Origin: a virus
Taxonomy: Duplodnaviria > Caudoviricetes
IMG/VR virus record: IMGVR_UViG_3300027975_000015
Location: 1 to 24,011 of that record
DNA length: 24,011 nt
Direction: 5' to 3' (one strand)
This document shows, piece after piece, positions 4,503 to 11,640 of the stretch. A program made the translations under genes and the position numbers. Each line of letters starts with the position of its first letter. Within the stretch, counting starts at the first letter, position 1. Below the pieces are notes generated by a model. The model made no database searches, was not told the DNA's origin, and saw only the letters and a program-made list of their open reading frames with translations.

Positions 4503-5924
4503 TCAGATAGCGTACCGATCCACCATCACCGTGTCAAGCATGATGGCTTCTGGTGTGAAGCGGTCAAAGTCAGCCTTCAGTACCCCTTGCATTACTGCTG
4601 GCGAGAAGCCCGAAATCAAAGCCACCCCTTGATCGTTGAAACGTGCAGGCACGTTGTCATACGAGTTCAGGTTCCAGAACACGATCTTTGGAAGCTCATA
4701 ACCAGCAGCCTCGAATCGTGCGCGGGTAGCCTCAAGTGCCGATCCACCAAACTTCGCGCAGGCATCGAATTGCATGTCCGACAGAATCAACAGCATGGTC
4801 GGCATGTCCTTTGCAGGCACCGCAAACGTCTTTGCGTGCGAAAGAATCTTGTCCATCGCCTTCATCAGGTCGGTGTTCATCGCCCAGCTGGATTGAGCCA
4901 TTTGGTCGATCTTGGACAGAACATTCCCCTTCAGATGCAGCAACTCAGGCGAACCCGAGAAGGTCAAGAAGGTGTCCTTGAACGCGCCACGGTTCTTGTC
5001 AGCAACGTACAGACCCAAAGATACCGCCACTTCAAGGCACGATACCTTCGTAGGCGACTTCCCCGCACCAATTGGGCAAGTCATGGAACCCGAAACGTCA
5101 ACCATCGCCAGAACGTTGGTACCGTCCATGTAGTCAGGCAACGCTTCCCATTGCGACAGAATCACTTGTCCTTCAGCTTCGGACGGCGGGCGACCGTAAA
5201 CGCCCATCAACCCTTGCAGAACTTGGTACGGGAAAACAGCACCTGCATTCACCTTGTCCGTACCCTTTGCCAAACGTGCAGCATAGGCTTCGTATGCTTC
5301 CTTCGCGTTGCGATAGAAAGCACCCTTGTAGCGGGTCGATGCCAACGAAGGCAGCTTACCGAATTCGATCTTGTCCCATGCCTTCGCGCACATGAGAGTT
5401 TCAACCACGTTGGTCAGACCAACGAGAGTCTTGCGATATTGCTTTGGCGACATGCCCATGTACTCACGCAGGGCGATTGCGTCCTTACCCTTACGAGGCA
5501 TCCACTTCGCTGCCAGGCCGTCACCAGCCAGAAGCGCCATGTGGATGAACGCGAACGCTTCTTCGCGAAGCTTTTCGTCATAACGAAACACCAGCAGGTC
5601 ATCCCAACGACCAACTTCTGGAGTCTTGTACATCAGCGCCCTTGCGGCAGCTGGGTCGCGCACTTCCAGATATTGGAGAATGTCGCGGTAGATTTGACGT
5701 TCGCCAGCACCACCACGAACGTCACGGGCCCATTGCGCGAGGCGCAATGCGACTTCGCGGTTTTCTTGCAAAGCCTTTGCGAACAAAGGCGTCACATCGC
5801 GACCGCGGGAAGCGCCGATCTGGTAGAACAGGTCTACAGTGGCCTTCAACGAACCAACGAATGCCTCCATGCCGTTGGTGGTAGTGGTACGTTCTGCACC
5901 GACATTGGTGACAAAAGTGTTCAT
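4503..5924 (-). CDS. DUF2828-family protein (TROVE/Ro60-like helical domain + vWA domain)
   Basis: Motifs DLFYQIGASRG, RDVRGGAGER, GRWDDL and AAKWMPR; vWA MIDAS DVSGSM, LILSDMQFD, IVFWNL. AAGGAG SD at 5931-5936 favours the ATG at 5924. Confidence 0.88.
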   Translation of the reverse strand: MNTFVTNVGAERTTTTNGMEAFVGSLKATVDLFYQIGASRGRDVTPLFAKALQENREVALRLAQWARDVRGGAGERQIYRDILQYLEVRDPAAARALMYKTPEVGRWDDLLVFRYDEKLREEAFAFIHMALLAGDGLAAKWMPRKGKDAIALREYMGMSPKQYRKTLVGLTNVVETLMCAKAWDKIEFGKLPSLASTRYKGAFYRNAKEAYEAYAARLAKGTDKVNAGAVFPYQVLQGLMGVYGRPPSEAEGQVILSQWEALPDYMDGTNVLAMVDVSGSMTCPIGAGKSPTKVSCLEVAVSLGLYVADKNRGAFKDTFLTFSGSPELLHLKGNVLSKIDQMAQSSWAMNTDLMKAMDKILSHAKTFAVPAKDMPTMLLILSDMQFDACAKFGGSALEATRARFEAAGYELPKIVFWNLNSYDNVPARFNDQGVALISGFSPAVMQGVLKADFDRFTPEAIMLDTVMVDRYAI

Positions 5925-5942
5925 CATCATCTCCTTCATGTT

Positions 5943-6011
5943 AACGGAATCGCGCCTTTCGGCTATGGTTTCTTGTTAAGAGAAAGTTTGGTTGTTTGCT
6001 GAAACGATTCC
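5943..6011 (-). ncRNA. Structured repeat RNA unit 3 (Y-RNA-like candidate)
   Basis: 7-bp stem GGAAUCG/CGAUUCC, then UUUCAGCAA; internal GCC-GAAA-GGC hairpin; 3' GUU. Confidence 0.65.
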
Positions 6012-6021
6012 ACTTGTTTGT

Positions 6022-6075
6022 AACAGGCTAGCACGTTTAACGTCCGCCGACCTTTTGGGTTGCTGAATCTAGCCT
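6022..6075 (-). ncRNA. Structured repeat RNA unit 2 (Y-RNA-like candidate)
   Basis: 7-bp stem AGGCUAG/CUAGCCU, then AUUCAGCAA; 3' GUU. Confidence 0.65.
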
Positions 6076-6093
6076 AAAACACTACAGAACAAA

Positions 6094-6213
6094 AACGGGA
6101 TAGGGGGTCTGTCTTGATAGACGGGTCCAGTACCCGTGGTCCGTTGCTCAAAATGGGAGGTTGTACGTCCCCGCGGCAACGTCATGGCTTTGTTAGATTG
6201 CTGAAACTATCCC
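6094..6213 (-). ncRNA. Structured repeat RNA unit 1 (Y-RNA-like candidate)
   Basis: 7-bp stem GGGAUAG/CUAUCCC, then UUUCAGCAA; internal stems CGUUGC/GCAACG and ACGGGU/ACCCGU; 3' GUU. Confidence 0.65.
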
Positions 6214-6234
6214 TTTGTCTCACTCAAGATTCCT

Positions 6235-6262
6235 ATTATAGCACCTTTTGGAATCTTGTCAA
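6235..6262 (-). promoter_or_regulatory. Sigma70-type promoter for the repeat-RNA/DUF2828 transcript
   Basis: TTGACA-16 nt-TATAAT with TG extended -10; overlapped by a 9-bp inverted repeat CAAGATTCC/GGAATCTTG (6225-6258). Confidence 0.8.
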
Positions 6263-6271
6263 TCGGTAAAT

Positions 6272-6649
6272 CTAACGCAGTCCTTCTTGTCTTGCCTTTC
6301 GCCTTAACACCTGGCGAGAAGGAATGTCTGCTGGCCGCACCAGTTGAGTCGGGTGACTCGGATTCGGCACAAATGCTGGGGAGACGAATCCTCGCTTATT
6401 GCGTCGTGCGATTTCTCGCTTACCTTGATGGGCAGCCCGTTGCTCATATTGCTTAGGCTTATACCACGCCCGCGCCGGAAGGTTCAATGCGCCCAGATCA
6501 AACAGGATCTTCTCCGCCATGTTGCCGATGATGGGCTTCACTACCTTCTTGCTCATTTCCTCGACGGCTGCATTGTTGCCGTCAATGATTTCTTCGGTAG
6601 TCACAACTTCACTCGCCTCTACTTTATTTTCATTATCCATGCGCCCCAT
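6272..6649 (-). CDS. Hypothetical protein (acidic N-terminus, basic C-terminus)
   Basis: 125 aa ORF on the coding strand, overlapping the upstream gene; the start may be at MDNENK. Confidence 0.65.
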   Translation of the reverse strand: MGRMDNENKVEASEVVTTEEIIDGNNAAVEEMSKKVVKPIIGNMAEKILFDLGALNLPARAWYKPKQYEQRAAHQGKREIARRNKRGFVSPAFVPNPSHPTQLVRPADIPSRQVLRRKARQEGLR

Positions 6650-7182
6650 CCTTCAGTTTTATGTAGCATGATATCGTGTGCAGCAACGAAGGCATTCGTA
6701 ACTTCCGTAGCCCCATCGCACCCATTTGCACCATAGTCATCCAATACCATGATGCCACCTTTGACTAATCTAGGCCAGATGAAATCTAAACAGCCGTGAT
6801 ACGCGAGCCCAGAGTCAACGTCAATATGCGCCAATCTGATTTGCGAACCCTCTAGACCAAAAAACGTATTTGGAATGATGCCTTCATGGATACACACATT
6901 GTCATGTGCATCCTGCAAGGCGCGGATCGCCTCAAATTCTGCCTCTGTTATCGCGAAACGGCCGTGCAGTTTCGGTTCGTCACCGATCCTTGGAATCCCG
7001 CCACCGAAAGTGTCGAACAAACGCAGCGTGGTAGGGCCGATGATCTTTAGCAACTCCATTGCCGAACCACCACGATAGACACCACACTCCCAAACTTCTC
7101 CGTCTAGGTGATTGGTGCCGATAGCAGACATCCTTAGTCGGGCAAGTTGTTCAGAACCGCAGATTGATTTCATCATGTTCAA
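6619..7182 (-). CDS. TylF/MycF/NovP-family O-methyltransferase
   Basis: Motifs GEVWECGVYRGGS, LFDTFGG, AHIDVD, LVKGGIMVLDDYG; start possibly 7176. Confidence 0.85.
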   Translation of the reverse strand: MNMMKSICGSEQLARLRMSAIGTNHLDGEVWECGVYRGGSAMELLKIIGPTTLRLFDTFGGGIPRIGDEPKLHGRFAITEAEFEAIRALQDAHDNVCIHEGIIPNTFFGLEGSQIRLAHIDVDSGLAYHGCLDFIWPRLVKGGIMVLDDYGANGCDGATEVTNAFVAAHDIMLHKTEGWGAWIMKIK

Positions 7183-7187
7183 AAAGG

Positions 7188-7393
7188 TGATTGGTGGCCG
7201 TAGCCGGGATTCTGTTCTATGCTACGATTTATCTTCGCCGCAACCCGAGCCAATAAGCAAGGAATTCCCTGGCTCTGTTTGCGTTGCTGGCTGTATCACG
7301 GTAGTGTCAATGACCGAAGTCTCCTACTCGTTCCTTGCGCCAGTCCCGAACTTCCTCAGAGATTGCTCTCCGCCGTAACTCGCCTGCCAATCA
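7188..7393 (-). ncRNA. rnpB: Minimal RNase P RNA (catalytic domain intact, S-domain vestigial)
   Basis: CR-I GAGGAAGUUCGGGA (7357-7344) pairs with CR-V ACAGAAUCCCGGCUAC (7215-7200) to form P4 with a bulged U. Also P1 UGAUUGG/CCAAUCA, P2 GUUACGG/UCGUAGC, P3 GGAGA-GCAA-UCUCU, P5 CUGGC/GCCAG, P6 GCAAGGAA/UUCCUUGC, P15/L15 with GGU, P16 GAGCCA/UGGCUC, and CR-IV AGAUAAAU. Confidence 0.88.
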
Positions 7394-7630
7394 TTAAGGC
7401 CCTGGATTATCTGTCAACTCACTTGGCTTAGGCACCACGTGCCATGGGTTCTTTTCTGCGTACCGGTACCCATCAAACTGTCGCCTCCCAAAATCTTCCG
7501 CAATCTCAGCAGAACTAAAAAGGTCTGGGTCAAATGCGCTGCCATAATCCTGCCAATACAGACCCCACCAAGGCTTGACCTGAATCTTGTACCTATTCAA
7601 GCCCTCATGTCGAAGAATTCGCCAACGCAT
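7394..7630 (-). CDS. Hypothetical protein
   Basis: 78 aa; AAGGA SD; packed between its neighbours. Confidence 0.7.
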   Translation of the reverse strand: MRWRILRHEGLNRYKIQVKPWWGLYWQDYGSAFDPDLFSSAEIAEDFGRRQFDGYRYAEKNPWHVVPKPSELTDNPGP

Positions 7631-7838: not shown

Positions 7839-7915
7839 TGGTAGGGGCGCCGGGGGTCGAACCCGAACCAGGGGATTAAAAGTCCGCTGTGCAGAAGCCG
7901 CTACACCACACCCCC
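7839..7915 (-). tRNA. trnK: tRNA-Lys(UUU)
   Basis: Acceptor GGGGGTG/CGCCCCT, anticodon loop CT-TTT-AA, TTCGACC T-loop, CCA. Confidence 0.92.
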
Positions 7916-8336: not shown

Positions 8337-8414
8337 TGGCACGCCCGGAAGGATTCGAACCCTCGTCTGTCTGAGGTAGAAGCTCAGTGCCATAGTCCAC
8401 TCGGCCACGGGCGC
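8337..8414 (-). tRNA. trnR: tRNA-Arg(UCU)
   Basis: CTGAG-CT-TCT-AC-CTCAG anticodon arm, A20, CCA. Confidence 0.93.
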
Positions 8415-8422
8415 ATTGTATT

Positions 8423-8498
8423 TGGAGCCACCGACAGGAATCGAACCTGCATCTGAACGGTTTAGGAAACCGTTGCCTCTCCATTAGACTACGGTGGC
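8423..8498 (-). tRNA. trnR: tRNA-Arg(CCU)
   Basis: ACGGT-TT-CCT-AA-ACCGT anticodon arm, A20, CCA. Confidence 0.93.
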
Positions 8499-8506
8499 AT
8501 TGTGTT

Positions 8507-8583
8507 TGGCACCCCCGGAGAGATTCGAACTCCCGACCGCAACGTTCGAAGCGTTGCATTCTAGTCCTCTGAATTACGGGGGC
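8507..8583 (-). tRNA. trnR: tRNA-Arg(UCG)
   Basis: CAACG-CT-TCG-AA-CGTTG anticodon arm, A20, CCA. Confidence 0.93.
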
Positions 8584-10823: not shown

Positions 10824-10883
10824 CTACGGCCGGGGAGTCAAGTTGCCGAAGCTTGCTTCGCGGGCCGCATCCCGCGTTACCCC
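10824..10883 (-). ncRNA. Candidate structured RNA downstream of tRNA-CAU
   Basis: GGGG/CCCC closing stem, CGCGGG/CCCGCG hairpin, CAAG-C-UUCG-G-CAA-CUUG hairpin; possible loop pseudoknot with downstream CCGUA. Confidence 0.4.
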
Positions 10884-10890
10884 AAATTCT

Positions 10891-11340: not shown

Positions 11341-11438
11341 TGGAAGCGGGGATGGGAGTCGAACCCACTATCTACGGCTTATGAGACCGTAATGATTTGT
11401 GCGATTATTACACCGCTCATCCGTTTCACTCACCCGCA
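11341..11438 (-). tRNA. Atypical tRNA-Met(CAU) with ~21-nt D-loop insertion
   Basis: ACGGT-CT-CAT-AA-GCCGT anticodon arm, GTGGG-TTCGACT-CCCAT T-arm, CCA. The D-stem GTGA/TCAT encloses an enlarged loop; 1:72 mismatch; ~98 nt. Confidence 0.75.
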
Positions 11439-11530: not shown

Positions 11531-11640
11531 GTCAGCACGCCCTATGACGAGCATTGCGCTCGTCGCCACATCGCTTGTGGCCCCGCTGACTGCATATTGG
11601 CAAGACTGCTAGGGTCTCACCTTTATTTTTGGGCCTAGCA
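11531..11640 (-). ncRNA. Candidate structured RNA(s) between tRNA-Asn and tRNA-Arg
   Basis: GUCAGC/GCUGAC encloses two perfect hairpins, GCCACA/UGUGGC and GACGAGC/GCUCGUC; a second stem is UGCUAGG/CCUAGCA. Confidence 0.45.

Follow-up and report, generated by a model that had tools for sequence, protein, structure and literature searches.

The window, i.e., the whole 24,011-nt stretch of DNA that was analyzed, is a virus record of 24 kb. Its T4-like genes encode RNase H, a DNA ligase, DUF6267 and DUF6433, and the RNase H is about 45% identical to the RNase H of phages Melnitz and DLP6. On the minus strand, a 206-nt RNA gene (measured from P1 to P1) exactly fills the gap between two open reading frames (ORFs) and is followed by a U-run at 7185-7181. 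This RNA is confirmed as the catalytic domain of an RNase P RNA with a short structured stub (Table 1). The upstream ORF is probably outside the RNase P system. The minus strand of the window carries all of its 10 tRNA genes, and CCA is encoded in all seven that were read. Between 7839 and 11731, tRNA-Arg accounts for four of the 10 (UCU, CCU, UCG, ACG). A tRNA-like gene with a CAU anticodon, a CCA end and a weak D-arm lies at 11344-11418 (minus strand), where ARAGORN missed it and the Rfam match is weak. Two small intergenic multi-hairpin sequences (11532-11590 and approximately 10826-10885, both minus strand) sit just 3' of tRNA genes and have no match in Rfam. A 478-aa DUF2828/DUF7788 protein (phrog_850, labelled RNA-binding) is encoded at 4503-5939 (minus strand); it also occurs near six of 146 loci of the RNA described here, and the long 5' region of its gene (5940-6270) holds a perfect sigma-70 promoter.

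Table 1. Coordinates of the mini RNase P RNA, its structural elements and its neighbors in the window
Feature	Position	Strand	Basis or remark
Mini RNase P RNA gene	7188..7393	-	starts where the upstream ORF ends, directly after its stop codon
P1	7393-7381/7200-7188	-	pair-by-pair check
P2 (6 bp)	7379-7374/7226-7221	-	pair-by-pair check
P3 hairpin (6 bp, GCAA loop)	within 7357..7393 (with P1 and P2 5' strands)	-	alignment and pair check
CR-I and P4 5' strand	7344..7357	-	bulged U7349
P4 (8 bp)	7352-7344/7209-7202	-	bulged U7349
P5 and P6 5' strands	7331..7343	-	7343-7339 is P5, 7338-7331 is P6
P5 (5 bp)	7343-7339/7291-7287	-	pair check, covariation
P6 (8 Watson-Crick pairs)	7338-7331/7264-7257	-	pair check, P6 duplex test
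Stub helix X	7327-7324/7304-7301	-	covariation
Stub hairpin Y	7321-7312	-	covariation
Stub internal loop	GA opposite AUUGACA 7311-7305	-	
P5 3' strand and J5/15 CAA	7284..7291	-	pair check
P15 (3 bp), P16 (7 bp), P6 3' strand, L15 GGU (7245-7243)	7239..7283	-	
Conserved GC, 2-nt gap at the P18 site, CR-IV (7234-7227), P2 3' strand	7221..7238	-	
CR-V (from 7215) and P4 3' strand	7201..7215	-	RF00010 alignment, pair check
Upstream 78-aa ORF	7394..7630	-	no family match
Downstream TylF-type methyltransferase ORF	6619..7182	-	not a conserved neighbor
tRNA-Lys(UUU)	7839-7915	-	nearest candidate substrate, encoded CCA
Three tRNA-Arg genes	8337-8583	-	nearest candidate substrates, encoded CCA

The preliminary description had read the minus strand as a phage-borne RNase P RNA catalytic domain and named the Rfam models RNaseP_bact_a (RF00010) and RNaseP-T for comparison. 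With Infernal, the window copy matches RF00010 across the whole model (positions 1-367; 43.6 bits, E = 2.3e-12 in a 501-nt scan), in agreement with that reading, at a score that does not reach the gathering score of 100. At this locus, the whole-window Rfam scan returned only a weak RNaseP-T match (22.9 bits, E = 0.29). P1, P2, the GCAA-capped P3, P5, the 8-bp P6, P15, L15 GGU, P16, CR-IV and CR-V were all located where they had been placed, and P4 was recovered as a pseudoknot with its bulged U, extended by one pair (A7352-U7202) that the earlier reading had missed. At four of the eight P4 pairs, both sides differ from the RF00010 consensus. The described loss of P7-P14 and P18 also holds, in that the alignment skips the specificity domain (S-domain) and P18, and just 2 nt are left at the P18 site. 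P17, a 3-bp helix that covaries in most family members, is not clear in the window copy, where the 8-bp P6 takes those bases. The elements that PMC4919922 describes for the active site and for RCCA binding are retained, including L15 GGU, given there as the site that pairs with the tRNA 3' RCCA in known RNase P RNAs. Single-sequence folding is weak evidence alone (z = -2.11), and the P4 and P6 pseudoknots are absent from the minimum free energy fold of the window copy; the structural case rests on covariation in homologs.

Homologs were collected by motif scans of viral contigs, metagenomes (120 of an estimated 220 or so) and GTDB genomes. At least 197 distinct CR-I to CR-V cores were obtained, at least 168 of which are short, after removal of 29 cores that were outside 140-225 nt or off-pattern. 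For the alignment, 27 of the 168 (longer than 175 nt) and 22 more at 90% identity were left out, leaving 119 sequences; a smaller alignment, A1, combines the window copy with 39 of 89 eligible sequences (40 in total). Since the scan patterns fix most CR-I and CR-V bases, and the GTDB, the metagenome and one viral-contig scan also fixed GCAA and length, conservation of these features is a product of the search itself, and forms that are long or carry P18 are undercounted. L15 GGU was absent from all patterns behind the 119 sequences except one viral-contig scan, and it is found in 114 of the 119 members (110 of the 111 parsed). The gap at the P18 site is at most 4 nt in 145 of 167 members. Median identity to the window copy is 54% among the 119 members, all less than 90% identical. 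The family model R1 gives the window copy, which was in its training set, 144 bits.

Covariation was observed throughout the proposed structure. In a structure-blind analysis (MI-APC) of the 119 sequences, the top 23 pairs are all located in P1-P5, P15-P17 and helices X and Y. Counted over the 40 sequences of A1, the proposed pairs are 92.5% paired, against 67.4 ± 0.8 after shuffling, and the covariation score is 0.647, against 0.196 after shuffling and at most 0.132 in slid controls (the shuffles ignore kinship in both cases). The preliminary description had pointed to covariation of P4 and P6 in homologs, and both helices are supported there. P4 pairs 5 and 6 covary with zero mismatches in 168/168 cores, although the patterns permitted mismatched combinations. 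The P6 duplex has a mean of 4.94 bp in 114 sequences, compared with 3.29 ± 0.08 under a null with mismatched partners; in the subgroup of the window copy, 21 of 26 members have seven to eight Watson-Crick pairs with differing sequences. P4 is fully rewritten in a 635-kb phage record (LR745206), yet it is paired and keeps the bulged U. CR-IV and the P1/P2/P3/P5/P15 core are likewise present in the window copy.

Where the S-domain would lie, 39 nt (7330-7292) separate P6 from the P5 3' strand, fewer than the approximately 45 nt first described. In 161 of 168 cores, the stub resolves into helix X, an internal loop and hairpin Y of variable length. The 5' side of the internal loop is GA in 151 cores; the 3' side begins with G in 153 and is 6-7 nt long in 138. 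Four nucleotides (G7324, A7322, A7305 and C7304) are each kept in at least 114 of 119 sequences. Rather than simple debris, the stub is an arm of two covarying helices that carries a conserved internal loop, which refines the earlier reading. The loop was also compared with the K-turn and T-loop consensus. Among the last five loop bases (UGACA in the window copy), U comes first in 72 of 99 members, against a background of 19%, with a U...A closure; the canonical U-N-N-R-A T-loop fits in 19 of 99. A kink-turn was rejected, as tandem G.A/A.G after a 3-nt bulge is unsupported and the required G occurs in only 10 of 99. Judging from intermediates such as L117, hairpin Y may correspond to P12, and the loop may be an eroded CR-III.

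Several relatives have unusual architectures. The RNA at L239:293-441 (minus strand) is approximately 150 nt long and has no S-domain stub, its P5 loop holding the P6 strand only; it is preceded by a sigma-70-like promoter and followed by three tRNA genes (RF00373, 39.9 bits; R1, 83.6 bits). In four relatives (L020:314-614, minus strand; L128:367-669, plus; L138:2745-3046, plus; L122:2987-3247, minus), hairpin Y carries a CCA-ended tRNA-like domain with a G3-U70-type pair, and three of these passengers are tmRNA-like without an evident tag frame. At L044:486-565 (minus strand), a tRNA-like gene (RF00005, 42.8 bits) is nested in hairpin Y of another mini RNase P RNA. The intermediate form at L117:135-342 (minus strand) has kept CR-II and CR-III and lost P8/P9. 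Seven viral contigs (L013, L029, L046, L052, L072, L078 and L085) encode RNase P RNAs with a full S-domain and the same P4 variant; in L078, there is an insert of about 330 nt that by eye resembles a small HNH-type ORF.

This is a family of phage RNAs. Of the 185,579 cellular genomes in the GTDB scan, only four match. The contigs concerned are all 2-13 kb long and bear 2, 10, 27 and 10 tRNA genes together with phage-like ORFs, and under the pattern there was no chromosomal match among the 185,579. Of the four bins concerned, one has a canonical rnpB of its own (209.7 bits) and one has fragments; rnpB was not seen in the other two, both of which are incomplete. Among 50,697 annotated phage records, the window copy matches Stenotrophomonas phage DLP6 only. 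In this cultured phage, the copy (KU682439.2, approximately 105,775-106,020) is unannotated and lies within a tRNA cluster, 5' of tRNA-Arg; it has extra hairpins at the P18 site and scores 54.7 bits with RF00010 (again below the gathering score of 100). BLAST with four family members against the same records gave real matches only to DLP6 and three uncultured huge-phage records; one further match is a bacterial rnpB and not the mini RNA. Huge-phage records with the mini RNA include L442:366-606 (LR756501.1, 735 kb; R1, 135.7 bits) and L443:344-575 (LR745206.1, 635 kb; R1, 122.5 bits). Model R1 has no match in Melnitz-3, phiM12, S-CREM1 or S-PM2, and four of the five cultured T4-like phages searched are without the RNA.

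The link to phage tRNAs suggested in the preliminary description was supported in the family. A tRNA lies within 2.9 kb at 45 of 60 loci with enough flank (a count without a random-position control), and 528/528 of the nearby tRNAs are on the same strand as the mini RNA; at the remaining 15 of the 60 loci, no tRNA was found within that distance. GG and UUCRA are present in 1135 of 1332 tRNAs near family loci by a crude, ARAGORN-biased regular expression, which points to mostly ordinary host substrates. CCA is encoded in only 773 of these 1332, although GGU is nearly invariant. No protein neighbor is conserved, the largest protein cluster reaching 16 of 146 loci (71 of which have at least 5 kb, so that a distant gene is possible). 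The only promoter-like site near the window copy is sigma-70-like (7417-7390), and its start would fall inside P1. Seven sigma-70-like sites were found against 3.0 ± 1.8 expected, and the T4 late-promoter motif is at chance level (8 versus 6.6). The earlier observation that rnpA is not visible in the window extends to the family: none of the 36 virus records that carry the RNA, of which 12 are 90% complete or more, has a match to rnpA (PF00825); the control gave 10 of 14.

The usual view of RNase P RNA is that of a housekeeping ribozyme of cells. No RNase P RNA encoded by a phage was found in the literature searched, which leaves subscription journals mostly outside and does not prove absence from print; the sole viral case encountered there is a camelpox RNase P-like RNA, reported as inactive in vitro (PMC3001073). 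A text search for RNase P was negative in PMC7162821 (main text, 10 supplements) and in PMC10690425 (main text, six supplements); part of the family could stand unnamed in three further files of the latter. The mini RNA is missing from phage annotations because the family falls under the Rfam cut-offs. As a natural, selected family with bacterial-type cores and the catalytic domain only, it makes testable the minimum size of a working RNase P RNA, the in vivo benefit of the specificity domain, and the reason why large phages encode tRNA machinery themselves. With its copy, the cultured phage DLP6 offers a bench system.

From sequence comparison, we consider it probable that the mini RNA is an active phage ribozyme that, together with host RnpA, processes phage pre-tRNAs with a CCA end. 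It is predicted to be transcribed, probably inside a polycistronic transcript of the tRNA region, and would bind host RnpA. Substrates may be docked mainly through pairing of their RCCA with GGU, together with the leader and acceptor stem. The RNA would then cleave 5' leaders from CCA-ended precursors of the phage's own tRNA operons, and the stub may replace the tRNA-elbow contact with a single loop or act as a strut in the structure. This reading is supported by the RF00010 alignment, the covariation, GGU in 114 of 119 members, the tRNA context, the absence of a phage rnpA, and the precedents of an engineered catalytic domain and of archaeal type T RNAs, which indicate that nature tolerates S-domain loss of this kind. 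Counted against it are the 15 of 60 loci without a near tRNA, the encoding of CCA in only 773 of 1332 nearby tRNAs, the four of five cultured T4-like phages without the RNA, the promoter start inside P1 and the T-loop fit of 19 in 99. That the RNA is instead a decayed host rnpB fragment or a chance resemblance is very improbable; the score under the Rfam gathering threshold and the folding z of only -2.1 speak for it, yet it is largely refuted by covariation, with compensatory changes throughout, the same deletion in 168 distinct cores and no chromosomal match under the pattern. The engineered E. coli domain loses about 100-fold in rate relative to the full-length RNA (18 versus 2161 with C5 protein; PMC5839562), and in T4 infection of E. 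coli, host rnpB is relatively stable while host tRNAs decay, as reported in PMC9697503. Together these values put in doubt what would be gained from a slower extra enzyme. The stable host rnpB and the mostly ordinary nearby tRNAs argue against a simple top-up of host activity and leave room for changed specificity, a decoy or a phage protein partner.

Changed specificity would mean an active ribozyme that, without an elbow ruler, acts mainly on short CCA-ended helices rather than on ordinary pre-tRNAs; phage tRNA-like RNAs, atypical tRNAs, and host 4.5S and tmRNA precursors are candidate substrates. Helix X has just 4-6 bp in 87 of 99 members and is shorter than the P7/P10/P11 stack, L239 is without any stub, hairpin Y of several close relatives encloses a tRNA or tmRNA-like domain with a CCA end, and the window has the tRNA-like CAU gene, whose D-arm is weak and which ARAGORN overlooked, all of which fit such a rule, as do the many non-tRNA substrates of bacterial RNase P listed in PMC4919922. 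The strong link to ordinary tRNA arrays, the fact that no specific target was identified, and a conserved stub loop that could still touch the elbow, as modelled for type T (PMC13462272), make it unlikely. A non-catalytic decoy, titrating host RnpA or pre-tRNAs and thereby tilting processing toward the phage, would be consistent with the absent phage rnpA, the stable host rnpB (PMC9697503) and the inactive camelpox RNA (PMC3001073). However, at a median identity of 54%, L15 GGU and further core nucleotides that the patterns left free hardly vary, which a protein sponge does not obviously need, and the position inside tRNA operons fits processing; we regard a decoy as quite improbable. A similarly low probability is given to an active RNA whose lost domain is replaced by a stub-binding phage protein unrelated to RnpA. 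The conserved asymmetric loop could be a protein site, and type T relies on the archaeal proteins Rpp29, Pop5, Rpp30 and L7Ae (PMC13462272), but the neighborhood offers no conserved candidate (largest cluster, 16 of 146 loci, 71 of them 5 kb or longer) and the K-turn guanine is present in just 10 of 99. Returning to an active ribozyme with host RnpA, a more far-reaching version is possible though doubtful. The family could be a phage-restricted structural type of RNase P and the first trans-acting viral tRNA-processing ribozyme, in which the two-T-loop ruler became a short one-loop arm or was lost (L239), and whose different substrate rule would favor short CCA-ended helices, including the tRNA-like passengers in the hairpin of some members.

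With the RNase P RNA of bacterial type A (rnpB, E. coli M1 RNA, RF00010), the window copy shares P1-P6, P15, P16, the bulged U in P4, CR-I, IV and V, J5/15 CAA, L15 GGU and a 6-bp P2. It differs in size (206 nt against 367 positions in RF00010), in the loss of P7-P14, CR-II, a canonical CR-III, P18 and a clear P17, in being phage-encoded, in the rewriting of four of eight P4 pairs, and in scoring 43.6 bits against a cut-off of 100. An engineered E. coli catalytic-domain RNA (Eco CP RPR, including delP18 P3Mini; PMC5839562) similarly is without the S-domain and P18, has a short P3 and keeps P6; it is a laboratory construct, whereas the phage RNA is natural, with a structured stub and an 8-bp P6. 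According to the same source, the E. coli domain alone cleaves a hairpin model substrate at the correct site (Table 1 of PMC5839562), with kapp rising from 0.095 to 18 upon addition of C5 protein; it needs the P6 pairing and tolerates P18 loss and a short P3. L239 is a natural match to this construct.

Archaeal type T (RF02357) had been named in the preliminary description as comparably reduced. The architecture is indeed alike, with a similar size, an intact catalytic domain, no P18 and only a looped single stem left of the S-domain (PMC3579882, PMC13462272). In type T, this stem is modelled with one T-loop (PMC13462272), and type T RNAs are active without most of the S-domain (PMC7191817). 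Membership was rejected, as the window copy scores 22.9 bits against a gathering score of 60 and has a 6-bp P2 and a 3-nt P5/P15 linker, compared with 3 bp and 2 nt in type T (PMC3579882). Type T also has P7-P9-derived stems and archaeal proteins, and the likeness is likely convergent. The diverged RNase P RNAs of CPR bacteria, as described in PMC8172020, are also bacterial-type, fall below the Rfam cut-off and have no P13, P14, P18 and sometimes P12; however, they are chromosomal, retain more of the S-domain, and in 23 of 35 cases are without the CCA-binding motif retained in the phage family. Theta ribozymes (PMC10879173) likewise occur beside tRNA genes, in gut phages, and have a proposed role in tRNA maturation, but they are HDV-like, with an unrelated fold, and self-cleave in cis at the tRNA 3' end. 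Among these systems, the window copy resembles the type A catalytic domain, and it departs from type A in its S-domain and score and from type T in its P2, linker and score.
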